Positions 1 through 34,873 are shown, counted from the whole stretch's first letter. The stretch is DNA of 63,222 nucleotides, filler included, from a bacterium (GCA_046331705.1; 3 parts of 3 records of this genome joined end to end with filler, not necessarily neighbours in it), one strand, 5' to 3'. Numbers and translations are program-made. Notes: generated by a model from the letters alone, not told the origin.

Positions 1-116
1 GTGCCCGTGAGGCCGAGCTCGTTTCGGAGCAGGTCCACGAGGGTCAGTCGCGGCTCCACGGTGGCTTCGTACTTGACGCCGTTGACCGTGAGCCGGATCG
101 AGCGTTTCGGGATCAT
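1..116 (-). CDS. (2Fe-2S) small subunit of a xanthine dehydrogenase/CoxS-family molybdoenzyme, 5' part only (runs off the window)
   Basis: Manual translation from ATG at 116: MIPKRSIRLTVNGVKYEATVEPRLTLVDLLRNELGLTG, a typical CoxS/XdhC N-terminus. Lies directly downstream of the FAD subunit. Not in the ORF track. Confidence 0.85.
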   Translation of the reverse strand, partial: MIPKRSIRLTVNGVKYEATVEPRLTLVDLLRNELGLTG

Positions 117-207
117 GGCTTGGCTCCGTTGCAGGCTGTGGCGGCGAGAGGCCGCCGCGCTCCATCCGGATGTGCGAGCGCAGGGACGCGGAGTGACGAC
201 TCCGCCT

Positions 208-1077
208 TCATCGCGCCGCTCGTGCGAACGCCTGGGGAAGGGCTCGGGCCGTGAGTGCCTGGGCCACGTGACGGCGGTACTCGGCGGTCGCGTGGACGTC
301 CGAGAGCGGCTCGTCGATGGCGTCGTCGACCCGGGCGGCCTCGGCGAAGAGCTTGTCGCTCGCCCTCGCACCGACGAGCGCGGCCTCCGCGGCGGAAGCG
401 CGAATGGGAGTCGAGCCGACGCCGAAGAGCACCACGCGCGCCGCGCTGCACGTGCCGCCGGGGTCGAGCGTGACGGTGGTGGTGACGCCGCACATGGCGA
501 AGTCGCCGTGGCGCCGCGCCACCTCTTCGAAGGCCCAGCCGGTACGCGCGGGCTGGGCCGGGAAGCGCACTTCGGCGAGCACCTCGGTCGTTTCCATCGA
601 GGTGGTCAGATACGTGACGAAGAAGTCGCGCGCCGCGATCTCGCGGGCGCCGTTCGGTCCCACCACGCGAAAGGTGGCGTCGAGCGCCAGTGCGACGGCG
701 GGGAGCTCGGCAGCGGGATCGGCGTGCGCGAGCGAGCCGCAGACCGTGCCCTGATTGCGGTTCTGCGGGTGGGCGATGTGGAGCATCGCCTCGTGGAGCA
801 GCGGCGTGGCGCGGGTGGCGAGGGGCGAGCGCTCGAGCGTGCGCTGTCGGGTCATCGCGCCGACCGCGATCGCTCCGTTCTCCTCGCGCACGTAGTCGAG
901 GGCCGGAACGCGGGCGATGTCCACCAGCAGCCGCGGCCGCGCGAGGCGCATGTTGAGCAGCGGCATGAGGCTCTGCCCGCCGGCCAGGATCTTGGCCTCG
1001 CCATCGGCGGCGGCGAGCAGGCTCGCGGCCTCGGCGAGCGACGCGGGGGCGGCGTAGTCGAACGGCGCTGGTTTCAT
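208..1077 (-). CDS. FAD-binding medium subunit of a xanthine dehydrogenase/CoxM-family molybdoenzyme
   Basis: MKPAPFDY start, AGGQSLMPLLNMR, RNQGTVCGSLAHADPAAELP, RRHGDFA and SDVHATAEYRR motifs of the CoxM family. Confidence 0.93.
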   Translation of the reverse strand: MKPAPFDYAAPASLAEAASLLAAADGEAKILAGGQSLMPLLNMRLARPRLLVDIARVPALDYVREENGAIAVGAMTRQRTLERSPLATRATPLLHEAMLHIAHPQNRNQGTVCGSLAHADPAAELPAVALALDATFRVVGPNGAREIAARDFFVTYLTTSMETTEVLAEVRFPAQPARTGWAFEEVARRHGDFAMCGVTTTVTLDPGGTCSAARVVLFGVGSTPIRASAAEAALVGARASDKLFAEAARVDDAIDEPLSDVHATAEYRRHVAQALTARALPQAFARAAR

Positions 1078-1132
1078 GCGAGCGGCCTCTCGTCGTGCGG
1101 CTCTCCCGGCGCGCGGGAAGAGCCTGGCACGT

Positions 1133-2026
1133 TCACTCCTTGGGCTTACCGAGCTCTTTCTCGTAGAGGTCGACGAGCGTCTCGCGGGCGCGCGCTTCGT
1201 CCTCGCGGATCTTCCAGAACTGCGGCGGACGCTTCTGCACGAAGGCGTTGCCGCCCTCCTTGCCTTCCGGCATGTCGAACCAATCGGGATAGAACTGGCT
1301 CGAGATCACGCCCATCTCGGCGTAACCGTCCATCTCCTGGTCGAACGCGGCCTTGAGGATCTCGAGGCAGCCGGGCGAGAGCGAGAGCATCTCCGCGCAC
1401 CACGCGAGGACCTCGGCGTCGAGGCGATCGGTCGGCACGACCTTGTTCACGAGCCCCATCGCGAGCGCCTCGTCCGCGGTGTAGCGGCGACACAGCATCC
1501 ACATCTCGCGCGCACGCTTCGCGCCGATCACCTTGGTGAGATACGGCACGAAGAAGCCGTCGGCGGGGCTCGACACCTTGGGGCCCGCTTGACCGAAGAT
1601 CGCGTCCTCGGCGGCGATGGTGAAGTCGCAGATGTAGGCCATGTGGTTGTGGCCGCCCAAGCAATAGCCCTGGACCGCGGCGATCACGGGCTTGCGCGAG
1701 AGGCGAACCAGGCGGTTGTGGGGATAGCGGTTGTAGAACGCCTCGCGCAGCCCCCACTTCTCCCATTCGACGTCGCCGCCGGCACCGAAATGCTTGCCGA
1801 CCCCGGCCACCACGATCACGCCGATCTTGGGGTCGTGGTTGGCGTCGTAGAACGCGCGGAACATCTGCTCCACCGTGCGCAACGTCATGGTGTTGAGCTT
1901 CTTGGGCTTGTTGCTCGACACCCGCGCCACGCCGCCTGCGAGGCCCGTGTGGAAGCACTTCTCGTAGAGGATCTCGTCGAAGTCGAGCCCGTCGCCTTCG
2001 ACCTTCGTCCAGGGTGTCCAGGTCAT
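1133..2026 (-). CDS. Crotonase-superfamily C-C hydrolase, BadI/MenB-like (beta-keto-acyl-CoA or beta-diketone ring hydrolase)
   Basis: FGAGGD oxyanion loop, KPVIAAVQGYCLGG, CDFTIAAEDAIFGQAGPKVSS, GAKRAREMWMLCRRYTA and EGKEGGNAFVQKRPPQF resemble the MenB/BadI subfamily. No men genes nearby. Confidence 0.8.
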   Translation of the reverse strand: MTWTPWTKVEGDGLDFDEILYEKCFHTGLAGGVARVSSNKPKKLNTMTLRTVEQMFRAFYDANHDPKIGVIVVAGVGKHFGAGGDVEWEKWGLREAFYNRYPHNRLVRLSRKPVIAAVQGYCLGGHNHMAYICDFTIAAEDAIFGQAGPKVSSPADGFFVPYLTKVIGAKRAREMWMLCRRYTADEALAMGLVNKVVPTDRLDAEVLAWCAEMLSLSPGCLEILKAAFDQEMDGYAEMGVISSQFYPDWFDMPEGKEGGNAFVQKRPPQFWKIREDEARARETLVDLYEKELGKPKE

Positions 2027-2204
2027 CGCGTTCCTCGATGTCTTTTCGGGGGGCTTTTCAAACCCCCCGCCCCGCGAAAGGCGTGACTTTCGTGGGGCCC
2101 CACCCCCGATGCGGCTCGCGTGGCTCGCCGCGGTGCCGCCGGCACCGGGCGGCAGGTGGAGCGCTCGGTTCCGAGGCTCGTCGATCTGCGCGCGTCCGGT
2201 CGAC

Positions 2205-2630
2205 TCATAGGGTGCCGATCACCCGTTTCGCGTTGGTCAGGAGCTTGGGCAAGTCCGCGCGGTCGATCGCCGTGAAACCGTCGGGCGGCGCGGCGAGCCC
2301 GAGGAGCGCCGACCAGAGCGGGCATGCGTAGAGCGCCACTCCCGCTTCGGAGGCCTGGCGCACGGTCGCGCGCGCGTCCAGGCGGCGGCCCTGGCCGCTT
2401 CCCGCCACGGGTACACCGAGCTGGGCGGCGCGGTCGCACATCGGGAAGCGAACCCCTTGCGGCGCCAGCTCGCGCGGCCACGCGAGCGTGCCGCCGGCGA
2501 GACCCGCGAGCGCCTCTTGCGTCACCAGCACGCCGACGCTGAGCCCGGATTGCTTGGCGTCGATCGCGGCCAGCATGCCGCCCATCACGGAGCTCGCCAG
2601 CGCGTCGCGCAGGATGATCAGGAGATCCAT
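2205..2630 (-). CDS. DsrE/DsrF-like (peroxiredoxin-family) small protein
   Basis: 141 aa. VGVLVTQEAL and ASEAGVALYACPLWS match the DsrE-fold pattern with its conserved Cys. Confidence 0.6.
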   Translation of the reverse strand: MDLLIILRDALASSVMGGMLAAIDAKQSGLSVGVLVTQEALAGLAGGTLAWPRELAPQGVRFPMCDRAAQLGVPVAGSGQGRRLDARATVRQASEAGVALYACPLWSALLGLAAPPDGFTAIDRADLPKLLTNAKRVIGTL

Positions 2631-2645
2631 GGATCGACCTCGGTT

Positions 2646-3860
2646 TCAGGCGGCTCGCGCCGCGGCGCGCGCGCCACGCACCGCCCCCTGACCCTCGAGC
2701 TCCGCGATCTCGGCGGCGCTGTAGCCGAGCTCCGCGAGCACCTCGTGGGTGTGCTGGCCGAGGACGGGCGGAGCGAGGCGCACGGAGCCCGGAGTGCCGT
2801 GGAGGTGGATCGGCACGCCGGTGACCTCGAGCGGCCCGACGGCCGCGTGGTCGACGGTGGCGACCATCTGGTTGTGGCGGACCTGGGGATCGCTCGCGAC
2901 CTCGGGCAGCGTCTGCACCGGCGCCACCAGCACGTCGGCGCCGATCAAGCGCTCCACCAGCTGCTGCCGCGTGAACGCACGGCAGCGCTCGGCGATGAGC
3001 GACTCGAGGACGTCCTGATTCGCCAGGCGTGCGTCGTTGCTGACGAAGCGCGGATCCTGGTGCCAGCTCACGTCGAGCGCCTTGCAGAGGTTGCGGAAGA
3101 ACTTGTCGGCGGGGCAGGTGAGGCAGATGCGCTGATCGTCGGCGGTGGCGAAGATGCCCGAGGGAGCGAAGTATTGGCTGCGGTTGCCGGTGCGGGGCAC
3201 GACCTCGCCGGCCAGGAAGTAGCTTCCCAGGAAGCTCGCCTGGCAGTGGACCGCGGCGTCGAGCAGCGAGATCTCGAGCCGTTGGCCTTCGCCCGTCCGG
3301 GTACGCGAGTGAAGCGCCGCCAAGACGCCCGACGAGACCAGCAGCGAGGTCATGACGTCGACGACGGGCACCGTCACGCGGATCGGCGCGCTGCCGGGAT
3401 CGCCCGTCTGCGCCACGATGCCGGCGTAGCCCTGCGCGAGGAAGTCGATGCCGGGACGACGCGCGTACGGCCCGTCGGGGCCGAAGGCGCTCACGCCCAC
3501 CCAGATCACGTCGGCGCGGTGCTGACGCACCTGCTCGTACGCGAGGCCCACCTTCGAGAGCGCCGGCTCGCGGATGTTGGTGATCAGGACGTCGGCGGTG
3601 GCCGCGAGCTTGGCGAACGCGGCGCGGCCGGCTTCCTTCGTGAGGTCGAGCACCACGCCGCGCTTGTTGCGATTCATGGACAGAAAGGGCGCGCGCTCGC
3701 CGTTCTTCTCCGGTCCGAGCAGCCGGCTGTCGTCGCCAACGGGCGATTCGACCTTGATGACGTCGGCGCCCAGATCTCCGAGGAGCGTCGCGCCGTAGGG
3801 CGCCGCGAGCATGGTGCCTGCATCGAGCACGCGGATGCCCGCGAGCGGCCCCGCGCTCAC
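2646..3860 (-). CDS. Class III CoA-transferase (CaiB/BaiF family)
   Basis: GTG start at 3860 overlaps the upstream TGA. GPLAGIRVLD, LGDLGADVIKVE, NRNKRGVVLDL, catalytic Asp in PVVDVMT, C-terminal APPVLGQHT. Confidence 0.92.
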   Translation of the reverse strand: MSAGPLAGIRVLDAGTMLAAPYGATLLGDLGADVIKVESPVGDDSRLLGPEKNGERAPFLSMNRNKRGVVLDLTKEAGRAAFAKLAATADVLITNIREPALSKVGLAYEQVRQHRADVIWVGVSAFGPDGPYARRPGIDFLAQGYAGIVAQTGDPGSAPIRVTVPVVDVMTSLLVSSGVLAALHSRTRTGEGQRLEISLLDAAVHCQASFLGSYFLAGEVVPRTGNRSQYFAPSGIFATADDQRICLTCPADKFFRNLCKALDVSWHQDPRFVSNDARLANQDVLESLIAERCRAFTRQQLVERLIGADVLVAPVQTLPEVASDPQVRHNQMVATVDHAAVGPLEVTGVPIHLHGTPGSVRLAPPVLGQHTHEVLAELGYSAAEIAELEGQGAVRGARAAARAA

Positions 3861-5071
3861 GGGATCACTCCCTGCTCCTTGAGCTCGCCGATCCGATCCC
3901 AGTCGTAGCCGAGGGTCTCGAACAGGATCATCTCGGTGTCCTGTCCGAGCTCGGGACCGAGCGTCTCGACGCGGCCGGGGGTCTTGCCGAGCGTCACCGG
4001 AAGGCCGCGCACCTTGACCTCGCGCTTGACTTCCTCGCAGTGGGCGGTGACGAAGTAGTCGTTCGCCCACGCCTGCGGATCTTGCGCGAGGTCGGCCAGG
4101 TTGGCGATGGGGCTGGAAGCGATCCCCGCGGCGCCGAGCCGTTGCGTCCACTCGGCGGCGGCTCCCTCGCGGAAGGTCGCGTCGAGGGCATCGACCAGCT
4201 CGGGGCCGTGGCGACGGCGCGTGGCGGCGCCCGTGAAGCGAGCGTCCGTTGCGAGCGCGTCGCTGCCGATCGCGCCGGCGAGCTTCGCGAAGGTCGCGTC
4301 GTCGTTCCTGGCGCACACGAAGATCCAGCGATCCTGCGCCGGGAACACGTTCCAGGTGGGGTTGTGCGCGTCGCGTCGCGAGACCTGACGCGAATGGCGC
4401 TCGGAGCGCCCCGCGAGGAAGCGCTGCAGGGTGGGCGCGGCGAGGAAGAGCTGCGAGCCGTAGAGCGAAGCGTCGAGGAACTGGCCCTTGCCGGTGCGCC
4501 GGCGCTGGTAGAGCGCCATCGCGATCGCGAACGCGGCCATCATCCCGCCGTAGGCGTCGCCCGAGCCCATGCCGAGATAGATCGGGGGCTCGCCGGGCTC
4601 GCCCAGCCGCGTCATGAGCCCGGTGAGCGCCTGCACCGTCATGTCGAACGACGGCTTGGTGTTGGTGCCGAAAGGGCCGTAGCCGGTGGTGGTGGCGTAG
4701 ACGAGCCTGGGATTGAGCGCGGCGAGCGCCTCGTAGCCGAGGCCGTAACGCTCCAGGTTGTCGTTGCCGACGTTCGACAGGAAGACGTCGGATTTCGCGA
4801 CGAGCTCGACGAGGAGCTCGCGCCCGGCGGGCTTCTTGAGATCGACGGCGAGGCTCTTCTTGTTGCGATTGATGACCAGGAAGTACTGATTCCAGTCGCC
4901 CACCGGCAGCGCCTTGATGCTGCGCACGCCGCGCCCTTGGTCGCCACCCTTGGGGTTCTCGACGTGGATGACCTCGGCGCCGAAGTCGGCGAGGTGCTGG
5001 GCCGCGACCGGCCCCTGGAACCAGACGGTGAGATCGACGACGCGGATCCCGTCGAGGGCGGACATGGTCAT
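3857..5071 (-). CDS. Class III CoA-transferase (CaiB/BaiF family)
   Basis: ATGA overlap with the upstream gene. ALDGIRVVDLTVWFQGP, NRNKKSLAVDLK, catalytic Asp in GSGDAYGG, GPELGQDT. Confidence 0.92.
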   Translation of the reverse strand: MTMSALDGIRVVDLTVWFQGPVAAQHLADFGAEVIHVENPKGGDQGRGVRSIKALPVGDWNQYFLVINRNKKSLAVDLKKPAGRELLVELVAKSDVFLSNVGNDNLERYGLGYEALAALNPRLVYATTTGYGPFGTNTKPSFDMTVQALTGLMTRLGEPGEPPIYLGMGSGDAYGGMMAAFAIAMALYQRRRTGKGQFLDASLYGSQLFLAAPTLQRFLAGRSERHSRQVSRRDAHNPTWNVFPAQDRWIFVCARNDDATFAKLAGAIGSDALATDARFTGAATRRRHGPELVDALDATFREGAAAEWTQRLGAAGIASSPIANLADLAQDPQAWANDYFVTAHCEEVKREVKVRGLPVTLGKTPGRVETLGPELGQDTEMILFETLGYDWDRIGELKEQGVIP

Positions 5072-6276
5072 GATCCGATGATGCCGCCGAGGCGTAGCTC
5101 GGCGATTCGCCGCTCGTCGAGGCCGAGGCGCTCGCGCAGCACTTGATCGGTGTGTTGGCCGGTGCACGGCGCGAGGGAACGCAGCCGCGCGGGGCTCTCG
5201 CTCGCGAAGATCGGGAAGCCGAGTGTCGCGACGCTGCCCACCCCGGGGCGGTCGAGGTCGAGCACGTAGCGGTTCTTGCGCGCGTCGGGATCGCTCGCCG
5301 GGAACGAGTAGTCCTCGATGATGTCGGCGGAGAGCTGCTTCGCGTCGAAGCCGCGCTTCCAGTGATCGGCATCGCGGGTGGCGAAGCGCTCTTCGAGAAC
5401 GCGCATCATCTCGAGCCGGCTGACGCCGCAGCGCTTCTCGTGGGTGTCGAAGCGTGGGTCGTGGCGATCGAGGCCCACCAGCTCCGAGAACGCCGGCCAC
5501 CAACGGTCGGTGTCGGGCATCGTGAGCGTGACCCAGCGGCCGTCCTTCGCGGGGTAGACGGTGCCGCTCATCGGGTTGCCTGCATCGAGGCGCGAGACCG
5601 GGTGGAGGAAGCGCTCGCCGCCCATCGCCAGAAACGCCTGCACGTCGAGGCTCGCGCCGTACATGTTGCCGGCGTAGAGCGAGGCGTCCACCGTCTGGCC
5701 TTCGCCGGACGCGTCGCGATGGATGAGCGCGGTCACGATGCCGAACCCCAGCATGGTGGCGGTGTACATGGCGCCGTGGCCGGCGTAGACGGGCGGTTTT
5801 CCGGGCTGTTGCAGGATGGGCATCATGCCGGTGCGCGCCGCCGCGAGCTCGTCGAGCGCAGGGAGCTCGGCATCCGGTCCCTTGGGCCCGAAGCCCGTGC
5901 CGCGGGCGTAGATCAGCTTGGGGTTGAGGGCGCCGAGCGACTCGGCGTCGAGGCCGTACGCGGCGAGCTCGCGCGCCGGCCAATCGGTGAGGAAGACGTC
6001 GGCGGTGCGCACCAGGTCGTGAAGCAGCGCTCGCCCCTCGGGACGAGCGAGATCGACGGCCAGCGCGCGCTTGTTGCGATGCACCAGCTCGGACTCGGGG
6101 TCCCAGCCGGGAAGGTCGCTGGGAGGCGCGTCGTCGGCGCGCCGCGGCACGGTGGCGGCGCGATCGTCGATGCGGATCACGTCGGCGCCGAAGTCCGCGA
6201 GAAAAACCGACGCGAGAGCGCTCCAGGGCTCGCTGGCGAGCTCGAGGATCACGACGTCGGCGAGCGCGGCGGTCAT
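5068..6276 (-). CDS. Class III CoA-transferase-like subunit (catalytic Asp apparently absent)
   Basis: LADFGADVIRID, HRNKRALAVDL and APCTGQHT. The segment equivalent to the Asp site reads YAGHGAMYTAT. Confidence 0.88.
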   Translation of the reverse strand: MTAALADVVILELASEPWSALASVFLADFGADVIRIDDRAATVPRRADDAPPSDLPGWDPESELVHRNKRALAVDLARPEGRALLHDLVRTADVFLTDWPARELAAYGLDAESLGALNPKLIYARGTGFGPKGPDAELPALDELAAARTGMMPILQQPGKPPVYAGHGAMYTATMLGFGIVTALIHRDASGEGQTVDASLYAGNMYGASLDVQAFLAMGGERFLHPVSRLDAGNPMSGTVYPAKDGRWVTLTMPDTDRWWPAFSELVGLDRHDPRFDTHEKRCGVSRLEMMRVLEERFATRDADHWKRGFDAKQLSADIIEDYSFPASDPDARKNRYVLDLDRPGVGSVATLGFPIFASESPARLRSLAPCTGQHTDQVLRERLGLDERRIAELRLGGIIGS

Positions 6277-6379
6277 GAGAGCTTCACTCGGTGGCCCGGC
6301 GAGGGGACGTGGCTCGGAGGCGTGCTCGATCGCTGCGGCAACGGCGCGCCACCCCTCCGAGGACCGGCGACCGCATCCG

Positions 6380-6922
6380 TCACTTCGACCAGGAACGGAC
6401 GGTATCGAGCGTCTTGTCCGCGAACTCGACCTCGTTCGGGAGCGGCTTGCCGAGCCAGTCGCGATAGAACGTGTCGAGATCGGGCAGGAACTCGAAGTCG
6501 GGCGGTGTGCCGCGCGGCACGGCTTCGACCTCGAGCTGGGTGCCGCAACCCGGGCAGTAGTACTCGCGGACCTGGGTCCACGCCGTGTCCGGCTGCTCGG
6601 TGCCGCGATAGACCTCGGCGAGCTTCTCCGGCGTGTCGCGCACGTGGATGAGCGCCGAGAGCTTCCAATTCACGCGGTAGTCGCCGAGCTCGTGGCCGCA
6701 GCGGCACTTCACGACGCGCGCGCGGCCCTTCTGCACGATGAAGAGGCTCGGCCCGAGCGGCAGCAAGATGCGATCGCTCCACGCGACCCGGCTCTGAAGG
6801 ATCTGGACCCACTTCTCGAAGCGGTCGGAGTCCTTCGAGTCCTTCATGATCTCCTGGACACGCGGCCAGGGGAGCTTGCCGTCGACCAGCTTCTCGATCT
6901 CGGTGATGTCGTAGGTCGGCAT
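6380..6922 (-). CDS. Acetone carboxylase gamma subunit-like protein (AcxC/ApcB family)
   Basis: IEKLVDGKLPW, KDSDRFEKWVQILQSRVAW, Zn ligands KCRCGH and REYYCPGCG, FLPDLDTFYRDWLG. Confidence 0.9.
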   Translation of the reverse strand: MPTYDITEIEKLVDGKLPWPRVQEIMKDSKDSDRFEKWVQILQSRVAWSDRILLPLGPSLFIVQKGRARVVKCRCGHELGDYRVNWKLSALIHVRDTPEKLAEVYRGTEQPDTAWTQVREYYCPGCGTQLEVEAVPRGTPPDFEFLPDLDTFYRDWLGKPLPNEVEFADKTLDTVRSWSK

Positions 6923-6965
6923 GGTTGGTTCCCGTCGAGCGCGCGGCGCGCGGCCGCGCGCGGAA

Positions 6966-9350
6966 TCAGAAGGAGAAGGTCTCCGGCAACTGCCAGAACG
7001 CCCGCAGCTCGGCGCCGAAATCCGGCGAGAGCTGCATCGACGTGCGCCACATCTCGGACACGGCGCTCGCCATGCCTTCCTTGGCCTCGACCTTCCGGCG
7101 CTCCTCTTTCCACCAATCCTTGAACGGCACGGCGCGCTTCTTCCGCGCCTCGCGGATCGCGGCGCGCTTGGCCTTGGTGGCGGCGGCGTCGATGGTCCAG
7201 GTCTTGGTGCTGGCGTCGAAGCTCGCCACCACGCCGTGGACGTCCTCGGCGATTCGCTGGCGTGTCCAGCCCTTGTCGAGGTCGGCGCGCACCATCTCGG
7301 GGTCGCGCTCCAGCGGATCGCCGAAGGCCTGCGCGCCGGAGATCGGGTGGATCACCAGGTCGTATTCGTGGAGCTGCTCCTTGGTGACGAACGGCGCCAC
7401 CTCGTTGGTGGCGACGAGCCGTGCCTCGATGTTCTTCTCGAGGTCGCCGTGCTCGGAGTCGCCACGCTCGTGGACCAGCGGACGCTGCTCGTCGATGAGC
7501 TGCTTGACGTTGGTGCCGGCGGCGTAGGCGGCGCGGTCCGGCCAGGTGGGGTAGGCGCCGAACATGCCGTGGTTGGGGAGCACCTTGCTGCGCATGCCCG
7601 CGCAGCCGCATTGGTACTCCACTCCCGGCGAGTTCTTGATCATCCACACGACGGTGTGGCCGAGCCCGCCGCGATAGGTCCCGTACCCACCCGAGTCCGG
7701 CTCCAGATTTCGACCGAGGTAGAGGATGGGGTAGTAGAGCTCGGTGATCTCGGCGTTACCGAAGTCGGCGTTGGCGGTGTAGATGCACCAGGCGCTGTTC
7801 TCGCCGTCGCCGATGGCCCGCGCCGGGGCGCCGTTCGAGGCCTGCTCCAGCGTGAGGCCGGCGCCGTACATGCCGTATTGATTGATGCCCGCGAACTCGG
7901 CGGTGAGCGTGGTGGCGGCGCCGGTCGCCACCTCCTCGACGAAGCCGCGCGAGTAGTAGAGCCGGCCGAACACCTCGTAGAGCGAGCTCAGCCACATCAC
8001 GGCCGGCGCCCAGGCAACGCCCGACGACGCGGCCCAGTTGACCGGGTAGGGGTTGGCCCACGAGCCGCCCGGCGGAGTATCGATGGTCCACGACGCCACC
8101 GACCCCCAGTTGAACATGTCGAAGCCGACGACGTGCGAATACGCCATGAGCACGCCCGAGAGAATCGCCGTGGGCGTGATGTTCTGACCGAAGGGCACCC
8201 ATCCCGAGGCGCCCGTGAGTGAGAACCGCACCCGTGCGTTGCCATCGATCTCGATGCGCATCGGCAGGTGGAAGAGGCAGTCCACGTTCTGCTGCGGCGT
8301 GAGCAGACGCTTGCCGGCCATCGCCAAGTCCTTGAACTGGGACTTGCGGATCAGACCAGGCACCGCCTGGCCGCGCACGCGGCCGGTGGCGTAGCGGCGA
8401 CTGTCCTCGATGTACTCGCGGGCCGCGTCCTCGAAGAAGTCGAGCCCGTATTTCTCGATGACCGCCGTGAGCCGTTCCTTGATCGTGAGGCAGCCCGCGA
8501 GCCGTCCGCGAGCGTCGCCCATGACCCAATCGGGCACGCGCGTGCGCGAGCGCATCCGCATCTCGTACCAGGGATAGAACGCGTTGTTCTCGCCGATGCG
8601 CTCCATCGTGACGGGGACGCCGTCCGAGTAGCAATCGGGATTGATGAAGCCGATCGAGCCGGGCAGCACGTAACCCGCGTCCATGGCGTGGGTGACCGCC
8701 GTGGCCCACGCGATGAGCCTGCCCTTGTAGAAGATCGGCATGGCCGTGTCGAAGTCGGCCGAGTGGATACCGCCGTAGTGCGGATCGTTGTTCTCGTAGA
8801 TGTCCCCGTCCTTGAAGCCGGGGTTCTCCTCGAAGCCGCTCTCGATCAGCGAGCGGATGAAGAGCGACAAGAGGCCGGGGTGCGCGGTGATGCCCCGCGA
8901 GGTGCAGATCGCCTCGCCGGTGGGCAGGTGCAAGCCCCACAGCGCGTCGCCGCCTTCCGCGGCGATGGGCGAGGCCGAGACCTTGCAGCCCACCGTCCAC
9001 GCCGCGTCGCAGAGGTTGAGCAGGATCTGCCACACCGCCTCGTACTGGCCGGGATCGGCCTCCTTGCGCGGCATGCGCTTCAAGCCGAAGAGGTGCCCGG
9101 TCTTCGCGAGCAGCCGATCGTTCTCGGCGAGCTCTTGGCGCAGCGTGCGGCGCGGTGCCGGCTTCGCGGAAGGCGCGCGCGCGGGTGTCTTGCGGGCCAC
9201 CGCCCTGCGCGTCTGCGCCTTGGGCGCCGGGGCCTTGCCGCGTGCCGCTGCAACCTTCTTGGCGCCCGCGGCCTTGGCGCCCTTCGCCAGTGGGCGCTTC
9301 GCCACCGCCTTCGCGGCGTTCTTCTTCGCCGACGCGGTCTTGGTGCTCAT
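6966..9350 (-). CDS. Acetone carboxylase alpha subunit-like protein (hydantoinase B/oxoprolinase family, AcxB-like)
   Basis: SASPIAAEGGD, GFEENPGFKDGDIYENNDPHYGGIHSAD, VTHAMDAG (metal-ligand His/Asp/His region), DSGGYGTYRGG and FGDPLERDP. Carries a Lys/Ala-rich N-terminal extension. Confidence 0.9.
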   Translation of the reverse strand: MSTKTASAKKNAAKAVAKRPLAKGAKAAGAKKVAAARGKAPAPKAQTRRAVARKTPARAPSAKPAPRRTLRQELAENDRLLAKTGHLFGLKRMPRKEADPGQYEAVWQILLNLCDAAWTVGCKVSASPIAAEGGDALWGLHLPTGEAICTSRGITAHPGLLSLFIRSLIESGFEENPGFKDGDIYENNDPHYGGIHSADFDTAMPIFYKGRLIAWATAVTHAMDAGYVLPGSIGFINPDCYSDGVPVTMERIGENNAFYPWYEMRMRSRTRVPDWVMGDARGRLAGCLTIKERLTAVIEKYGLDFFEDAAREYIEDSRRYATGRVRGQAVPGLIRKSQFKDLAMAGKRLLTPQQNVDCLFHLPMRIEIDGNARVRFSLTGASGWVPFGQNITPTAILSGVLMAYSHVVGFDMFNWGSVASWTIDTPPGGSWANPYPVNWAASSGVAWAPAVMWLSSLYEVFGRLYYSRGFVEEVATGAATTLTAEFAGINQYGMYGAGLTLEQASNGAPARAIGDGENSAWCIYTANADFGNAEITELYYPILYLGRNLEPDSGGYGTYRGGLGHTVVWMIKNSPGVEYQCGCAGMRSKVLPNHGMFGAYPTWPDRAAYAAGTNVKQLIDEQRPLVHERGDSEHGDLEKNIEARLVATNEVAPFVTKEQLHEYDLVIHPISGAQAFGDPLERDPEMVRADLDKGWTRQRIAEDVHGVVASFDASTKTWTIDAAATKAKRAAIREARKKRAVPFKDWWKEERRKVEAKEGMASAVSEMWRTSMQLSPDFGAELRAFWQLPETFSF

Positions 9351-11518
9351 TTGCGGTTACCGCCCTTCTTCTGGTTCTTGTTGGTGAGCCAGTAGATCTC
9401 GTGTGCGTCGATCTTCACGTGCCAGTCCTCGGGCACGAAGAGCGTCGTGTTGGGGGCCTCGATGATGGCGAGCCCGTCGATCTCGTTGCCGGGGCGCAGC
9501 TCGCTCATCTCGTAGGTGCGAGCGTCGATCCAGCGACCCTTCTGGAAGCAGCGGCGGATGCCCTTGAACGATTGCTTCGAGGGCTTCTTCCCTTGGAGCG
9601 GCTGCTTCACGATCTTGGGCTTCACCGTGTTCACCCGCGCCACCACGCTCACCTCGGTGACGTTGAAGGTGGGGAAGGTGGGCTTGGCCGCGAGCGTGAA
9701 CATCTTGGTGAAGAGCTCTTCGTGGCGCGCCAGCAGCTTGTCCACGTCCTTGGGGGTCTCGAGGCGCGCGACCGGCGAGTCCACCTCGACGTCCTCGAGC
9801 TGCCCGTAGTAGCGGATGTAGGCGATCTGCTGAAGCTGGATCTGATCGCGGCTGAAGCCCTCGCCGATGAGCTCGGTCAGGAGCTCGTTCTCCAGGTGCG
9901 CCCAGGTGGCGCTGACGTGTGCCAGCGCCTGCACCTTCGCGGCGCCGTCCATGCCCGGGAAGATCAGCGCGGTCACGCTCTTGTGGCGCCGGTGCGCGTA
10001 ATCCATGCACGCGCCGCCCCAGGCCGAGAAGGCGCCGGCGTGCGCGACGGTCGCGATCGACTTCCAGGGGTAATCGCCCGCGTACGGGATGAGGTGCATC
10101 GGGCCGCCGCCGCCGTAGCCGAGCAGCATGTAATCGCGCAGGTCGTGACCCACCATGAGGCTGCGCACCAGGTGCTCGCGCATCACCACGTTCACCAGGT
10201 CGAAGCACTGCTCGGCCGCGACGTAAGGGTCCAGCCCGAGCGGCCGCGCGATCTTCTCGGTGACGATGTCGAGCGAGGCCTTGGGATTCACCTTCACCCG
10301 GCCGCCCAGGTAGTACTCGGGGTTGATGATCCCGAGCAGCATGTTGCAGTCGTTGATCGTGGGGATGTCCGGGTTGCCGGTCTCCTGAAAGACCGGTCCA
10401 GGCGTTCCGCCGGCACTGTCGGGCCCGAGCTTGATGCGCTTGGTCTGCGGATCGAGGCGGATGTAGGTGCCGGTGCCGGCGCCGATCGACTTGATGTCGA
10501 TCATCGGCACGTTGACCTTCATCTTCTGGAAGGGCGGCTCGCGGTTGATCGGCAGCACCCCCGCCGTGATGGCGCCGGCGTCGAAGCTGGTGCCGCCCAC
10601 GTCGGAGCACACGATGTTCTTCTCGCCGATGACCTTGCCCAGGTAATCGGCGCCCATGATCCCGCCCACCGGGCCGGACATGACGGTCTCGAAGAGCCGG
10701 TTGTAACGGATGTTGGTGACGCCGCCGTAGCAGAGCACCGTCTTGAGCGACTTCGCGTAACCCTTCTCGGCGAGCTTTTCCTCGACCTGGAAGAGCTGCT
10801 TGCGCGCCGGCTGCGACGCATACGCTTGGATCACGGTGGCGTTGGCGCGCGAGACCTCGCGCACGGTGGGCGCCACGTCGCTCGAGATGGAGATGGGCAC
10901 CTCGCGGCCCACCTCCTTCATCACTCGCCGCGCGATCTCGGCGGCCTTCTGCTCGTGGGCCGGGTTGTTGAAGGACTGGAGGAACACGATCGCCAGCGAC
11001 TGGATGCCCTCCTCGACCAGGAGCTCCCGCACGCCGCGCTCGACGTCGCCCTCGTAGATCGGGATCACCGGCTGACCGAACATGTCGATGCGCTCGGTCA
11101 CGCCCCGGGTGAGCCGCCGCGGCACCAGCGGCTCGCGGTGCTTGCGGTACTGCATGTGGGTGATCTCGGACCATTGCTCGTCGGTGAAGGTCTGCGAGCC
11201 GCGCCCCTGGACCACGATGTCCTCGAAGCCGCGCGTGGCGAGCAGGCCGGTCTTGAGCCCGTCCAGGTTGATGAGCGAGTTGAGCATCGAGGTGCCGGTG
11301 TAGATCGCGGTCTCGATGGACTCGCAGAACCGCCGGCCGTCCTTCTCCATGTCGAGGCCCATGTACTTGAGGGCCTCCTCCAGCGATTCCATGTAGCCGA
11401 TCGACTCGTCGTGACGCGTGGTGCGCGCCTTGCCGATGACCGAACGGCCGCGTTCGTCCACCACGATCACGTCCGTCATGGTGCCGCCCGCGTCACACGC
11501 AACCAGATAACGCGCCAT
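9347..11518 (-). CDS. Acetone carboxylase beta subunit-like protein (hydantoinase A/oxoprolinase family, ATP-binding, AcxA-like)
   Basis: DAGGTMTD, YTGTSMLN, SGPVGG, DVGGTSFD, SIGAGTG, GPDSAG and YGGGGPMH motifs. ATGA-type overlap with the next gene. Confidence 0.92.
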   Translation of the reverse strand: MARYLVACDAGGTMTDVIVVDERGRSVIGKARTTRHDESIGYMESLEEALKYMGLDMEKDGRRFCESIETAIYTGTSMLNSLINLDGLKTGLLATRGFEDIVVQGRGSQTFTDEQWSEITHMQYRKHREPLVPRRLTRGVTERIDMFGQPVIPIYEGDVERGVRELLVEEGIQSLAIVFLQSFNNPAHEQKAAEIARRVMKEVGREVPISISSDVAPTVREVSRANATVIQAYASQPARKQLFQVEEKLAEKGYAKSLKTVLCYGGVTNIRYNRLFETVMSGPVGGIMGADYLGKVIGEKNIVCSDVGGTSFDAGAITAGVLPINREPPFQKMKVNVPMIDIKSIGAGTGTYIRLDPQTKRIKLGPDSAGGTPGPVFQETGNPDIPTINDCNMLLGIINPEYYLGGRVKVNPKASLDIVTEKIARPLGLDPYVAAEQCFDLVNVVMREHLVRSLMVGHDLRDYMLLGYGGGGPMHLIPYAGDYPWKSIATVAHAGAFSAWGGACMDYAHRRHKSVTALIFPGMDGAAKVQALAHVSATWAHLENELLTELIGEGFSRDQIQLQQIAYIRYYGQLEDVEVDSPVARLETPKDVDKLLARHEELFTKMFTLAAKPTFPTFNVTEVSVVARVNTVKPKIVKQPLQGKKPSKQSFKGIRRCFQKGRWIDARTYEMSELRPGNEIDGLAIIEAPNTTLFVPEDWHVKIDAHEIYWLTNKNQKKGGNRK

Positions 11519-11613
11519 CGCCTTACCCCTCGTCGGTCAGGAGAAACGTGGTGAGCGGGGCTCGTCGTCCCCGTGAAACCGAAGCGCCGACGCTGCGCGG
11601 CGGCCGTGCCTCG

Positions 11614-12306
11614 TCATGCCGCACTTCCGAACAAGCGCCGCAAGAAGCCCCGGATGGCCTCCCAGAGCGCGCGGAGCAAGATCGGCAGAATCCGGATCGA
11701 ATCCTCGGACTTCGCAGGCGCGGGGGCCGGGCCGCCCGGCACGGCCGCGGCCTGGCTCGCCGCAGCGGTGGGGGTCGACTCGTCCGCGCTCGACGTGGCC
11801 GTCGCGGAAGCCTGGGCATCCGCGGTGGTCGGTGCCGGCGCAGGCACCAGCTCCGGAACCTCCAGCCGCTGCTTGGTCGCGGCCACGAACTGCAAGAAGA
11901 TCTGGTGCGCGACGCCCTGGATCATGCCGCGGCCCACCTGCATGAGCCGTCCGGTGAGATCCACCGTGGCCTCGGCGACGATCTCCGTGCCGCCGCCCGG
12001 CAGCGCCGTGAGGTGGCTGCGCATGGTGCCCTTGGCCGTGCCGCCGCTCGTCTCCTTGCCCTCGGCCGCCATGTTCACGCGATGGCTGGCCTCGTCCACC
12101 TCGGTGAGGTGGATCTTGCCCTTGTAGCTGGCGCTCACGGCGCCGACCTTCACCTTCACCTGGCCCACGAAGGTGCGGTCGTCCACGACCTCGAGCAGCG
12201 TGGCGCCGGGCAGGCACGTGACGACCTGGTGCGGGTCCATCACGAAGCGCCACACCCGTTCGATGGGCGCCGATACTTGGAACCGCTCCTGGATTTCGAT
12301 CGCCAT
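11614..12306 (-). CDS. CoxG/SRPBCC-family protein
   Basis: Start re-set to MAIEIQERFQVSAPIERVW. CLPGA, VKVKVGAVSASYKG and GRLMQVGRGMI are CoxG motifs, followed by a Pro/Ala linker and a C-terminal amphipathic helix. Confidence 0.88.
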   Translation of the reverse strand: MAIEIQERFQVSAPIERVWRFVMDPHQVVTCLPGATLLEVVDDRTFVGQVKVKVGAVSASYKGKIHLTEVDEASHRVNMAAEGKETSGGTAKGTMRSHLTALPGGGTEIVAEATVDLTGRLMQVGRGMIQGVAHQIFLQFVAATKQRLEVPELVPAPAPTTADAQASATATSSADESTPTAAASQAAAVPGGPAPAPAKSEDSIRILPILLRALWEAIRGFLRRLFGSAA

Positions 12307-12383
12307 CGGGATGCGCGGGTTTCCCGTGTTTCGCGGGGAATTCGAGGGTGGTGGAGAGGGGCGACGAACGGCGCGAAGCGCCA

Positions 12384-12403
12384 AAGTGAAACGTGTTCTA
12401 CTT
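12384..12403. promoter_or_regulatory. KstR-like palindromic operator upstream of the coxG-acx operon
   Basis: AAGTGAAACGTGTTCTACTT. The core TGAAACGTGTTCTA fits TnnAACnnGTTnnA. About 80 bp upstream of the coxG-like start, in an AT-rich patch. Confidence 0.75.
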
Positions 12404-12642
12404 CTAGCAGCGCGCGTCGAGACCGTCAACGCAAACGATCCCGCGAGCGGTCGCGGGGCACGCAGCGGTGGATGACGAAGCGGACGCGCGGCCCCGCGCG
12501 GAACCTCGAGACGTGCAGCTGGCGCGGGGACATCCGTCACGCGCCGTGCGGTCGTCCGGGAGCCGCTCGCCAGCCGATGCGATCGCGCGAACGGAGCCAC
12601 GGGCGCGCGTCCGCTCGCCAGGTGGCCGGGCGGGCGCGGCGG

Positions 12643-15558: not shown

Positions 15559-15571
15559 GGTCCGAGGGACC

Positions 15572-16546
15572 TCATTCGTAGCGCGAGGCGGCGGCCTCGA
15601 CGAGCGCCGCGGGGATCTCGATCTTCATCGAGCGCATGGTCTGGAGATTGATCGATTGGAGCACCTTGCGCGGCGTGCTGGGTGCGGGAGCGCGCGACGC
15701 GGCGAACGATCCTGCGGCGAGCGCTTGCTCGCCGCACTGACGTCCCAGGTCGACGTAGTCGCGCTCCAGCGCGTAGAGCGCGCCGGCCTTCACCCACGAC
15801 TCGGAGGGCCCGACGAGGGGGATGCGACTCTGCAGGGAGAAGAGCAGCAACGTCTTGGCCGCTTCGGGCGAGAGCACCACGCCGTCGGGGATGCCGAGCA
15901 GCAGCTGCGCGCGCTGATCGAAGTTCTTGAGGGCCACCGGCAGCTCCTCGGGGGTCGGCACCTCGCGCGTCACGAGCTCCAGGCCGAGCTTGGCGGCGGC
16001 CGTGCGGGCGGAGGCGACGCGCTCGCCGTTCTCTTTCGGGTTGAAGAGCACGCCCACGATGGTGCGATCGGGCAACATGCGGCGGACCCAGTCGAGCTGT
16101 TGCTCGATCGGGAACTCGAGCGTCACGGCGGTGGCGTTGGGGCGATCGCGCACCACCTCGGGAGAGAGCACCAGGCACGCCACCAGCGGCGGCGCCGCCA
16201 GCTCGGCGGTCACCAGCCGCGTCGCGACGGCGCCCAGCGTCACCACCGCTGACGGACCCTCTCGCAGCCACTCGCCGAGCGCCGCGCGAGCCTGCCGCGG
16301 GTCGGCGGACGCGCGCTCGACCCGCAGCTCACGGCCCGCCGGGTCGCCGGCGAACGCCTCGCGAAGCCCCTGAATGGCCTCGCGATAGGGCCTGGCGTCG
16401 TCGCTCGAGATCACCAGCACGCGCGCCGCGAGCGTGCGGGTCGCGCCCGACGCGCAGAGCGGACCCGCCGCGAGACACGCGGCCACCAGCCAGCGCGAGC
16501 CGCGCTTCGCGAGGCTCGCGATCCGAGCGAGGAGGTGCGTGCCCAT
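15572..16546 (-). CDS. Periplasmic ABC-type substrate-binding protein (ABC_sub_bind-like) with no cognate transporter
   Basis: ATG at 16546 overlaps the receptor's TGA. Signal-like N-terminus, [42 protein letters not shown] and SINLQT. Confidence 0.8.
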
Positions 16547-18887: not shown

Positions 18888-18907
18888 AAGTAGAACATGT
18901 TCTACTT
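18888..18907. promoter_or_regulatory. KstR-like palindromic operator in the divergent TonB receptor/fadD3 intergenic region
   Basis: Perfect 20-bp palindrome AAGTAGAACATGTTCTACTT, about 170 bp upstream of the CoA ligase. Confidence 0.8.
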
Positions 18908-24095: not shown

Positions 24096-24338
24096 GCGAC
24101 GTTGCGTACGCGAGCGAGCACCGCATCCACGGGGCGTGGGTGGTCGTGCTCGTCGCCGTGCTGGGATAGCCGAGCATCCGGCATGCCAGCGTTCGCCAGC
24201 GCTGGGCGGCGATTTCGTCTCGCTGCGCTGACAATGCGCCTGGCCGTCAGGCGCAACGCCCGGGCAAAGGTCCGCAATCGTCGCGACGAGAGCACAGCGG
24301 TCGACCGATTGACGCCCTCGCGGCGCGGTTGGCGGTCG

Positions 24339-24358
24339 AAATAGAACGTGTTCTACTT
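24339..24358. promoter_or_regulatory. KstR-like palindromic operator upstream of the thiolase
   Basis: AAATAGAACGTGTTCTACTT with core TAGAACGTGTTCTA, 45 bp before the thiolase ATG. Confidence 0.8.
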
Positions 24359-24402
24359 GCGACCCCGATCCCACGACGTCGCCGTTTCGAGGAGAGCAAG
24401 CG

Positions 24403-34241: not shown

Positions 34242-34873
34242 GGCGTTGCCGCGGATGCCGGCGAGCCACCGCCCGGAGCGCTCGCTGCTGGCGCGGAAGC
34301 GGCAGGCGCGGGCGTGGCGGGTGCGGCGGGTGCGGCGGGTGCGACGGCGAGCGGCGAGACCGGACGCGTGAACGGGTGCGGTCGTAGGTTGCGAAGCAGG
34401 ATCAGCACCGGAAAGACCGCCCACGGCAGGTTCGCCATGGTCATCACGAACAGGTTCTTGGTCGGCCACTGCCCCCAATACTCCTCGGACATGATGCAGC
34501 AGATGATCACGATCAAGAAGCTGCCGTAGATGATGCTGGGGATGCGGATCCACTCGCGTCCGCGGGCGTAGGCGTAGATGGCGAACGCGTAGAACGGCCC
34601 GAAGTAGAGCGCGTCCACCCAGATCGTGACCTTCCAGAAGGGCGGGCGGGCGAGCAGCAGCGGATCGAACTTCTCGCCCCACCAATGCACCATGTTCACC
34701 GCCCACGCGGGCGGCCAGGGCGGATAGATCTTGTTCGCCAGGAACGCCTGGTAATCGGGGATCGCGATCTGCTCGAAATCCACGAAGTACACGATGAACG
34801 GCAGATTGATGAGGAAGAAGACCAGGAACGCGATGTCCAGACGACGTTCGCGCAGCGGGATGACTTCTCGCAT
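34238..34873 (-). CDS. EXPERA-domain (emopamil-binding protein/TMEM97-like) membrane protein
   Basis: Four TM helices, WWGEKFDPLLLARPPFWKVTIWVDALYFGPFY and ANLPWAVFP. Confidence 0.75.
   Translation of the reverse strand: MREVIPLRERRLDIAFLVFFLINLPFIVYFVDFEQIAIPDYQAFLANKIYPPWPPAWAVNMVHWWGEKFDPLLLARPPFWKVTIWVDALYFGPFYAFAIYAYARGREWIRIPSIIYGSFLIVIICCIMSEEYWGQWPTKNLFVMTMANLPWAVFPVLILLRNLRPHPFTRPVSPLAVAPAAPAAPATPAPAASAPAASAPGGGSPASAATP

Follow-up and report, generated by a model that had tools for sequence, protein, structure and literature searches.

The locus examined here raises the question of what an enzyme resembling acetone carboxylase might do inside an operon that also encodes three CoA-transferases, a ring-hydrolase-like crotonase and part of a molybdenum (Mo) hydroxylase. 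The operon occupies positions 1-12306 of a 63,222-nucleotide (nt) stretch of bacterial DNA (GCA_046331705.1; three parts joined end to end with filler), and this whole stretch is referred to below as the window. The initial annotation, made from the sequence alone, had read the operon as a candidate oxygen-independent ring-opening pathway, in which either the methyl ketone of an opened steroid ring or a cyclic ketone would be carboxylated, activated with coenzyme A (CoA) and cleaved. On the basis of the present analysis we favor, with about even confidence, the reading that the operon encodes an oxygen-independent module for the breakdown of an alicyclic, most likely steroid-derived ketone by carboxylation, thioesterification and cleavage.

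The G+C content of the window is ∼70% and coding frames have a G+C fraction at third codon positions (GC3) of ∼0.9; strands and genes were assigned by the GC3 criterion together with Pfam and NCBIfam matches. The operon is one co-directional run on the minus strand, which extends from 12306 down to 1 and leaves the window inside coxS. In order of transcription it encodes a CoxG-like SRPBCC protein of 230 amino acids (aa) (11614-12306; PF06240, 2.1e-19); a Hydantoinase_A/AcxA-like beta subunit of 723 aa with N, core and C domains (9347-11518; PDB 5m45_B, 5.3e-156); a Hydantoinase_B/AcxB-like alpha subunit of 794 aa (6966-9350; PDB 5m45_A, 2.7e-107); an Acetone_carb_G gamma subunit of 180 aa (6380-6922; PF08882, 2.4e-40; PDB 5svb_C, 9.5e-48); three predicted family III CoA-transferases, CoAT1 (5068-6276; PF02515, 9e-72), CoAT2 of apparent dicarboxylate/succinyl-CoA type (3857-5071; CoA_transf_3) and CoAT3 (2646-3860; CoA_transf_3); a 141-aa protein with a probable DsrE fold (2205-2630); a 297-aa crotonase (ECH_1) of the MenB/BadI clade (1133-2026; PF00378, 7e-52); coxM, the FAD subunit of a xanthine-oxidase-family Mo enzyme (208-1077; PF00941, 1e-45; PF03450, 4e-24); and the first 38 residues of coxS, its 2Fe-2S subunit (3-116; Pfam/NCBIfam). 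None of these genes contains an internal stop. Start and stop codons overlap by 4 nt at 9347-9350, 5068-5071 and 3857-3860, and the remaining gaps are 15-178 nt. This confirmed the gene run and the overlaps described in the initial annotation; its statement that no oxygenase is present also holds for 1-12306, where Pfam and NCBIfam scans found no oxygenase domain.

Is the three-subunit enzyme a carboxylase or a relative of hydantoinases? Among solved structures, acetone carboxylase was the best match of all three subunits (beta, 524 bits; alpha, 363 bits; gamma, 165 bits), acetophenone carboxylase (Apc; PDB 5l9w) scored 354, 147 and 37 bits, respectively, and caprolactamase (6yra_A) reached 254 bits against beta. 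The NCBIfam cut-offs for Apc (ApcB, 41 bits versus 250; ApcC, 366 versus 1500; ApcD, 162 versus 1500) and for caprolactamase (CapA, 364 bits versus 1000; CapB, 67 versus 1000) were all failed. The subunit set is that of AcxABC from Xanthobacter autotrophicus and Aromatoleum aromaticum (PDB 5svb and 5m45), namely a Hydantoinase_A type, a Hydantoinase_B type and a small PF08882 subunit, with the genes in the same beta-alpha-gamma order. The small subunit (Acx gamma or Apc beta) is described as specific to the carboxylases Acx and Apc (PMC13677872). The Mn ligands of Acx are alpha-His150, Asp153, His175 and Glu89 (PMC5543143); in the window alpha subunit, as aligned by eye, H196, D199 and H221 are identical to the first three and D135 stands at the Glu89 position. 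These four columns were invariant in 38 of 38 family alpha subunits (at least 700 aa, out of 46 called alpha open reading frames (ORFs)). The related loci found numbered 44, all of them records of metagenome-assembled genomes (MAGs) labeled Myxococcota, Binatia, Chloroflexota and the like. Four Cys residues of gamma (Cys73, Cys75, Cys123 and Cys126), which are kept from Acx and are by analogy its probable Zn ligands, were invariant in 33 of 33. Thus, the gamma subunit with its Cys set, the Mn ligands and the best solved relatives make an Acx-type carboxylase, and not a hydantoinase or lactamase type, well supported at the level of sequence, in agreement with the earlier argument from the gamma subunit.

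Larger ketones lie within the range of this enzyme type. Apc and an Apc-like acetone carboxylase of Rhodococcus (5l9w; PMC13677872) are ATP-dependent and possess a small Zn subunit homologous to Acx gamma, and Apc shows that bulkier substrates can be accepted. In contrast with Apc, the operon in the window has three subunit genes only, without a second Hydantoinase_A-type subunit or an epsilon subunit. A separate, Apc-like cluster was observed in one of the genomes that carry the module (L097; G003:C4:9000-26000); it comprises one small gamma-like gene, one gene of the Hydantoinase_B type and two of the Hydantoinase_A type, and its products are 22-37% identical to the window subunits.

As judged from sequence comparison, the enzyme is not an AcxABC orthologue and belongs to a separate, widely spread clade, because alpha reaches no more than 363 bits with AcxB, whereas identities inside the family are 62-90% even between phyla. 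The divergence of alpha from AcxB had been noticed before, and alpha was indeed the most divergent subunit when its 363 bits were set beside the 524 bits of beta and the 165 bits of gamma, which has 180 aa; a close AcxABC orthologue, which the initial annotation had named among the outcomes that would refute it, was not what we found. Among 8000 scored candidates, 257 proteins matched alpha with E ≤0.001, and the best 120 of these 257 were 64-90% identical; the named ones among the 120 came from MAGs of Dehalococcoidia, Binatia, Myxococcales, Acidimicrobiia and Deltaproteobacteria. A sample of 151 genomes from the phylum of one carrier (G005) contained six genomes with an alpha orthologue (62-69% identical) and two with an Acx-like alpha that was 31-34% identical to the window alpha; the beta and gamma subunits at the latter two loci were 34% and 42-44% identical to those of the window, and no CoxG or CoA-transferase match was found within ∼7 kb of either. 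In a quick maximum-likelihood tree of 35 family alphas (after three over-long mis-called ORFs had been dropped) and the two Acx-like rows, a long branch with 100% SH-aLRT support parted the two Acx-like rows from the family; the placement of a 205-aa fragment of the Apc-like L097 cluster, also included, was disregarded. The tree intermixed the labels Myxococcota, Binatia, Chloroflexota and Thermodesulfobacteriota, and its topology did not follow the phyla. This pattern suggests that the module has been transferred laterally, although MAG labels are unreliable (locus L024 is labeled Enterobacteriaceae).

Two further differences from AcxABC concern alpha itself and its company. Glu89 of Acx is replaced by Asp in this family, and the alpha subunit of the window lineage carries a Lys/Ala/Pro/Arg-rich, histone-H1-like N-terminal tail of ∼75 aa (9126-9350, minus strand), which we include in the gene because the start forms an ATGA overlap with the beta stop. 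Such tails measured 61-75 aa in members of the window lineage and at two loci from Binatia, and 8-46 aa in other members. Unlike AcxABC, moreover, the family is always accompanied by family III CoA-transferases and usually by a CoxG-like protein and a MenB/BadI-clade crotonase.

The CoA-transferases were examined further, and for all three queries racemases scored below CoA-transferases among solved structures. The nearest solved relatives were succinate-hydroxymethylglutarate CoA-transferase (SUGCT), a CaiB/BaiF protein, YfdE and a benzylsuccinate CoA-transferase subunit: CoAT2 scored 187 bits against SUGCT (9br6), CoAT3 scored 205 bits against 4ed9 and 200 bits against SUGCT, and CoAT1, the most divergent paralogue, had a best PDB match of 110 bits. 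Alignments were built from those of 74 called CoAT ORFs that measured 330-480 aa and were at least 50% identical to a window paralogue. A loop Asp, which we take to be the catalytic Asp of the family, was kept in 22 of 22 CoAT2 orthologues (as GSGD, once GAGD) and in 19 of 19 CoAT3 orthologues (in a V/I-D motif). CoAT1 lacked it in 25 of 25 orthologues, the loop being two residues shorter and free of acidic residues. Judging from these alignments, CoAT1 is probably a non-catalytic or altered partner, and a reasonable guess is that it works in a heteromer like the two-subunit benzylsuccinate enzyme (9fn0). BbsEF, with its two different chains, provides a precedent for a heteromeric family III CoA-transferase, to which the CoATs of the window matched with low scores of 46-147 bits; the operon differs from it in having three paralogues, one of them without the conserved Asp.

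The crotonase had MenB (NF005637; 231.5 bits, cut-off 380) and BadI (TIGR03210; 213.6 bits, cut-off 467.6) as its best NCBIfam matches and thus fell below both cut-offs. Top NCBIfam and PDB matches placed it in the same sub-clade as these two enzymes, from which it differs in setting, being encoded in a catabolic operon rather than one for menaquinone or benzoate. On alignment with Escherichia coli MenB (4els), G86, G133, G156 and S161 were kept, the oxyanion-hole glycines included, whereas Y97 was replaced by L, D163 by A (with a D one position on) and Y258 by F; Y97, D163 and Y258 are catalytic residues of MenB. The possibility that this gene is the organism's MenB was ruled out by score and aligned residues. 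What the initial annotation had called a BadI/MenB-like hydrolase therefore keeps its clade and loses both equivalog assignments: it is neither MenB nor BadI, and is a candidate retro-Claisen hydrolase acting on a ring or an acyl chain.

Conservation of the gene run was measured across the related loci, with L043 (a 46% paralogue) left out and only loci with enough flanking DNA counted. Beta was present in 31/31 loci, gamma in 35/35, CoAT1 in 31/31, CoAT2 in 29/29 and CoAT3 in 25/28. The coxG-like gene stood upstream of beta in 19/28, and among long loci the crotonase (at least 60% identity) was present in 16/26 and coxM in 5/26. Every locus of sufficient length showed the order beta-alpha-gamma-CoAT1-CoAT2. 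The gene run is far above chance, and its core consists of carboxylase and CoA-transferases, to which the SRPBCC protein and the crotonase are usually added. In Binatia-type loci, XdhC and MobA-like genes for maturation of the molybdenum cofactor precede coxG. Beside the module in three other loci (L019:514-4054, L020 and L044) we observed ChsH-type FAS1_DH/MaoC pairs, Ltp-type thiolases and acyl-CoA dehydrogenases, together with one or two DUF35 genes next to an Ltp-type thiolase; in L019 a KstR-type box (see below) precedes that operon. SnoaL genes also lie near the module in other loci.

Which substrate would such a module serve? The first indication comes from regulation. The sequence TnnAACnnGTTnnA, which is the KstR operator consensus, occurs three times in the window against 0.06 expected, and none of 100 shuffles reached three matches, so that the KstR-like box claimed upstream of the operon was borne out. 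That box (TAGAACACGTTTCA on the minus strand, 12387-12400) lies ∼80 nt upstream of the coxG-like start, which was placed by alignment with 18 orthologues, and directly follows a possible TTGACG-N17-TAGAAG promoter; a simple scan itself found no consensus promoter in 1-12700. The second, palindromic box (TAGAACATGTTCTA, 18891-18904) separates a TonB-receptor operon from a divergent acyl-CoA ligase gene of the FadD3 family (19077-20696, plus strand; NF005801, 780 bits versus a cut-off of 657). FadD3 is the CoA ligase for methylhexahydroindanedione propionate (HIP) (PMC7264893). A third box (24342-24355) falls at the 5' end of a MurJ-like gene of the MOP flippase family (22338-24374, minus strand); in a related genome (G001, L084:13999-15957) a box was likewise seen at a MurJ-like gene start, opposite an IpdAB/EchA20-like operon.

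The association of box, ligase and operon recurs in related genomes. At L001 the ligase and coxG are direct divergent neighbors with two boxes between them, and the ligase of G006 also adjoins a coxG-like gene; boxes upstream of coxG or beta were found in L014, L019, L033 and L037 as well. The phylum of G001 is represented by five genomes in the collection, and all five (5/5) contain the alpha gene (86-89% identical). A FadD3-family gene over the cut-off, with a box just upstream, was present in 3/5 of them (G006, G007 and G008) and in 0/14 controls; in a fourth it was broken off by the contig end. Genome-wide, strand-summed matches to TAGAACNNGTTNNA were compared with those to a reversed control. 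The box was enriched in four genomes of the window lineage, with 30 matches against 5 in G001, 24 against 3 in G004, 24 against 5 in G006 and 27 against 10 in G007, and was not enriched in three other carriers, with 2 against 1 in G002, 4 against 2 in G003 and 4 against 0 in G005.

The surroundings of the boxes in G001 (eight regions, 79 proteins scanned) resembled steroid catabolism. They include two Rieske oxygenases with the C-terminal domain of KshA (KshA_C) and P450s; an operon of acyl-CoA dehydrogenase (ACAD), ChsH2-like protein (FAS1_DH + OB), ACAD and Ltp genes that resembles mycobacterial igr; a MaoC/FAS1_DH pair with ACADs; an NMO-ETF-DUF35-Ltp run opposite a P450-CMD-EMO-type-SnoaL run; and a thiolase-SDR-SDR-ECH-CoA_trans operon of the IpdAB/EchA20 kind. 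Four of the box-flanking proteins exceeded NCBIfam cut-offs, and the PRK models concerned correspond tentatively to named mycobacterial genes. With a FadD3-family ligase under the box and boxes flanking KshA-, igr- and IpdAB/EchA20-like operons in sister genomes, the link to steroid-type catabolism made in the initial annotation gained support. Of the window genes scanned, none encoded a TetR protein; TetR genes occur in L014 and L044, in the latter next to coxG, and the same gene family (f35) adjoins coxG in L020.

The second indication comes from the part of the operon that lies beyond the window. Sister genomes, among which the alpha of G004 is 88-90% identical to that of the window, provided the continuation (G004, L001 + L056; G001, L004 + L055; and the Binatia genome G002, L017 and L057). 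After coxS they encode a coxL product of 805 aa, an Amidohydrolase_2 protein of ∼328 aa, an Ltp-type thiolase of 400 aa, a DUF35/ChsH2-OB protein of 139 aa and a canonical enoyl-CoA hydratase of 261 aa. Full coxS and coxL genes, the latter with Ald_Xan_dh_C and two MoCoBD domains, were present in L017 and L056 in M-S-L order. The PF04909 (Amidohydrolase_2) gene directly follows coxL in L017, L056 and L055; in L024 the contig breaks inside coxL, and a PF04909 gene lies downstream. The best solved relatives of coxL were CO dehydrogenase (470 bits) and quinoline 2-oxidoreductase (446 bits). An assignment of coxMSL as a CO dehydrogenase was rejected, because the NCBIfam score was 518 bits against a cut-off of 991 and because a regular-expression search of coxL for the CO-dehydrogenase-type loop in its AY..R form had no match.

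The known system closest to this arrangement is the 2,3-seco ring A module. In it the steroid ring A hydrolase SRAH, an Amidohydrolase_2 protein, is encoded next to the Mo enzyme 1-TDH/AtcABC; for ring A to be trimmed, a dehydrogenase, a hydratase and an aldolase are required, together with a CoA ligase or transferase and a hydrolase that releases acetate (PMC11780191). The gene set of the sister genomes matches this logic by analogy: a three-subunit Mo enzyme is followed by an Amidohydro_2 protein, with genes for CoA-transferases, enoyl-CoA hydratase and aldolase/thiolase types around them, and a HIP-CoA-ligase-type gene adjoins the operon. On the other hand, reports of the ring A module come from beta- and gammaproteobacteria only and do not ascribe a carboxylase to it (PMC11780191; PMC7264893). 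The Mo enzyme MhyADH of the cyclohexanol pathway of Alicycliphilus denitrificans has the same M-S-L order and, in a comparison by size and order only, subunits of 292, 165 and 824 aa against 289-293, 160-176 and 805 aa here (PMC3044224).

Taken as a whole, the operon could work as follows; its independence of oxygen is predicted from gene content only, and its substrates and reactions throughout are our proposals. The Mn/Zn- and ATP-dependent three-subunit carboxylase would attach CO2 to the carbon beside the keto group, giving a beta-keto acid. The family III CoA-transferases would convert this acid into a CoA thioester, probably from succinyl-CoA, with CoAT2 and CoAT3 as the catalytic members and CoAT1 as a likely partner, and the crotonase would then cleave the beta-keto-acyl-CoA by a retro-Claisen reaction and open the ring in the fashion of BadI. 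In the window lineage, the coxMSL-type Mo enzyme and the Amidohydrolase_2 protein could make and hydrolyze a cyclic 1,3-diketone, in the manner of 1-TDH/AtcABC and SRAH during ring A cleavage; the Ltp-type thiolase/aldolase, DUF35 protein and enoyl-CoA hydratase would trim the opened chain, and a HIP-like product would be handed to the neighboring FadD3-family ligase. The whole set would be repressed through the KstR-type operator, and the CoxG-like protein may deliver a hydrophobic substrate. Of the overall reading in the initial annotation, the parts that stood were the carboxylase type, its separation from Acx and the steroid-type link; the Amidohydrolase_2 gene after coxMSL in sister genomes, a member of the SRAH family, adds to the support.

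A more specific form of this proposal, which we consider doubtful, concerns steroid ring B. The tricyclic 5-ketone left after removal of ring A (the des-A ketone) would be carboxylated next to its keto group with ATP, the CoA-transferases would form the thioester and the crotonase would open ring B; dehydrogenation and hydration would follow, and a retro-aldol reaction of Ltp/DUF35 would release propionyl-CoA and leave HIP for the adjacent FadD3-type ligase. The conversion of the des-A ketone to HIP has been called 'completely unclear' (PMC7264893) and 'unknown' (PMC11780191). Such ring B chemistry has precedent as a proposal, because a BadI-like hydrolytic opening of ring B and an aldol cleavage to HIP have been suggested for the 4,5-seco estrogen pathway (PMC7264893). 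In the literature searched, mostly open-access main texts, no link was found between an acetone-carboxylase-like enzyme and the cleavage of steroid or alicyclic rings; the seco-pathway texts searched did not mention 'acetone carboxylase' or 'hydantoinase', and among the papers listed by a separate search none mentioned Myxococcota.

It should be noted that a number of observations weigh against the proposed breakdown of a steroid-derived ketone. First, acetone carboxylase passes a phosphorylated substrate through a 40-angstrom internal channel (PMC5543143), and a steroid-sized substrate is not obviously accommodated because the channel suits small ketones and beta is well conserved with AcxA. 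The crotonase misses both the MenB and the BadI cut-off and differs at the MenB residues listed above, and the operon contains no acyl-CoA dehydrogenase gene. Second, the links to AtcA, MhyADH and SRAH consist of Pfam family, subunit order and subunit size alone. The amidohydrolase matched solved structures weakly (3irs, 42 bits; LigY, 24 bits), its best 120 homologues were MAG or unnamed records with no known steroid degrader, and its ten nearest full-length 50%-identity clusters were 31-43% identical, again with no known steroid degrader among them. In addition, the core module often occurs with no Mo enzyme nearby, as the low count for coxM indicates. Third, the module also occurs in genomes without box enrichment (G002, G003 and G005), and the G001 regulon, with its Rieske oxygenases and P450s, does not imply anaerobic life. 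KshA_C was found in 3/6 carriers and in 48/145 other genomes of G005's phylum, which is no clear enrichment; the two top-scoring KshA_C genes of the 151-genome sample were both in carriers. Finally, expression is indicated by a weak hint: short contigs from three metatranscriptome runs fell on coxM, alpha, beta and gamma and bridged the gamma/alpha and alpha/beta junctions, so that the operon may be transcribed, although carry-over of DNA could also account for these contigs.

In one alternative, the substrate would be a non-steroid alicyclic or isoprenoid ketone (of cyclohexanone type, terpenoid, hopanoid-derived or a long-chain methyl ketone), and the steroid flavor of the regulon would be specific to one lineage. 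We regard this as unlikely, yet as the strongest of the alternatives. It accords with the spread of the family over Myxococcota, Binatia, Chloroflexota and other MAGs, some of them marine, with the lack of box enrichment in three carriers outside the window lineage and with the order and sizes shared with MhyADH; the KstD-like flavoprotein encoded near the module in Chloroflexota loci, which invites comparison with the MhyADH pathway, scored nearly the same against KstD (410 bits) and 4-oxocyclohexanecarboxylate 2-dehydrogenase (401 bits). However, in the window lineage the operon and the FadD3-family ligase share the operator that marks igr-, KshA- and IpdAB-like operons, and other loci have the ChsH-type MaoC pairs, Ltp + DUF35 and SnoaL genes noted above.

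A steroid or similar substrate could also be attacked at a different point, as in the first of the two options offered by the initial annotation. Here the carboxylase would act on the methyl ketone of a keto acid formed by ring opening, for example DSAO or another 2,3-seco steroid acid, or an acid of 5-oxohexanoate type that arises when a 1,3-diketone is hydrolyzed; the resulting 3-oxo-dicarboxylate would be activated with CoA and then cleaved thiolytically by the Ltp-type thiolase with DUF35. The substrates of known Acx enzymes are methyl or ethyl ketones, the CoATs are similar to dicarboxylate CoA-transferases, and the sister-genome operon has a Mo enzyme and an Amidohydro_2 protein able to yield such a keto acid as well as a thiolase and DUF35 protein downstream. 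The thiolase and DUF35 families of related loci also match, weakly, BbsB (134 bits) and BbsA (40 bits), the pair that acts on a bulky beta-keto-acyl-CoA. This option appears somewhat less probable still, since in Sterolibacterium DSA-CoA is hydrolyzed to release its acetyl group as acetate, with no carboxylation involved (PMC11780191), the strongly conserved crotonase would be left without a clear role, and most loci lack the Mo enzyme and amidohydrolase.

That the enzyme is an ordinary acetone or butanone carboxylase, with CoA-transferases that only activate acetoacetate and neighbors that are unrelated catabolic genes, seems improbable to us. Deeper AcxB-like clades of unknown substrate do occur in Arctic Ocean MAGs (PMC13714315), alpha homologues are annotated as 'acetone carboxylase alpha subunit' in some of the MAG records, and the kept metal sites and best solved relatives point in the same direction. 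Yet the distance of alpha from AcxB contrasts with the tightness of the family, the canonical-like Acx loci in G005's phylum have neither coxG nor CoAT genes, the operator is one common to lipid- or steroid-type operons, and three coupled CoAT paralogues, one without Asp, together with a crotonase exceed what activation of acetoacetate needs. We consider it very improbable that the enzyme is a lactam or hydantoin hydrolase that uses ATP to open an N-heterocycle after its hydroxylation by the Mo enzyme: the Hydantoinase_A and Hydantoinase_B domains, the detectable relationship with caprolactamase and the Mo hydroxylase and amidohydrolase of the sister-genome operon would suit it, and its model would be the anaerobic indoleacetate (iaa) cluster, in which hydantoinase-like proteins are found together with a Mo enzyme and a CoA-transferase of family III, but the gamma subunit is described as carboxylase-specific, the Acx Mn ligands are kept, alpha scores 59 bits against caprolactamase and 76 bits against N-methylhydantoinase compared with 363 for Acx, and no nitrogen-handling genes were seen in the operon.

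With regard to habitat, the stretch 6300-12450 was found (at least half of sampled words) in 16 runs from 10 studies, and all 16 runs were from activated sludge, sludge, wastewater or digesters. Some features of the operon remain to be described. The region 1-12700 contained 8 terminator-like sites against 5.0 ± 2.3 in shuffles, which is no excess. The CoxG-like protein has an Ala/Pro/Thr-rich linker and a C-terminal amphipathic helix, and a predicted complex of beta with its residues 1-150 scored 0.00 against a mark of 0.32 in a run made without controls, which carries no information on binding. For the 141-aa protein there was no Pfam or NCBIfam match; ESM Atlas placed it with DsrE/DrsE_2 clusters (features, 0.89; structure TM, 0.82 and 0.73), so that the label 'DsrE-like' from the initial annotation stands as a fold-level lead. 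It has orthologues in L004 and L024, and the corresponding position of L017 holds an unannotated ORF of 142 aa that is 58% identical (tblastn), without a Pfam match.

Between the operon and the ligase, the window contains genes on the minus strand for a hybrid histidine kinase (12643-15558; HAMP, HisKA, HATPase, two receiver domains and Hpt), a PF04392 periplasmic binding protein (15572-16555) and a TonB-dependent receptor (16546-18681), the last with a KstR-type box upstream. This block, 12643-18681, was found between ligase and operon in the window only and is absent from that place in L001; it may be a module for substrate uptake and sensing. Directly downstream of the ligase lies a gene for a B12-binding radical SAM protein (20828-22291, plus strand), with weak BchE, HpnJ and HpnR-type matches far below cut-offs. 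Elsewhere in the window, the regions 34238-34987 and 49368-52438 encode an EXPERA/EBP-family membrane protein and a cytochrome P450 that has an EF-hand pair at its N-terminus, the P450 being followed by a CMAS-type methyltransferase and then by two DUF4436 proteins; these genes may concern sterol or lipid modification. A 719-aa protein made up nearly entirely of ankyrin repeats is encoded at 40553-42712 (plus strand).

The opening of steroid ring B in the absence of oxygen is stated to be unknown (PMC7264893; PMC11780191), and a pathway not yet found has been suggested for anaerobes outside the beta- and gammaproteobacteria (PMC11780191). The operon described here offers a concrete candidate chemistry, by which an unactivated alicyclic ketone would be carboxylated at the expense of ATP, converted into a thioester and opened by a retro-Claisen reaction, in a regulon that is otherwise like that of steroid catabolism and in a bacterium recurrent in sewage sludge. 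If true, the ring B version would supply an oxygen-independent route from the des-A ketone to HIP, and would place that route in uncultured Myxococcota-like bacteria, Binatia and Chloroflexota, beyond the beta- and gammaproteobacteria of the known 2,3-seco pathway. Whatever the substrate, these sequences define a clade of acetone-carboxylase-like enzymes that is large and strongly conserved, and its CoA-transferase paralogue without the Asp and its companion of CoxG type are new for this type of enzyme. The names now given to members of the clade in metagenomes, 'acetone carboxylase' for some and generic hydantoinase/oxoprolinase for others, would mislead estimates of acetone turnover.

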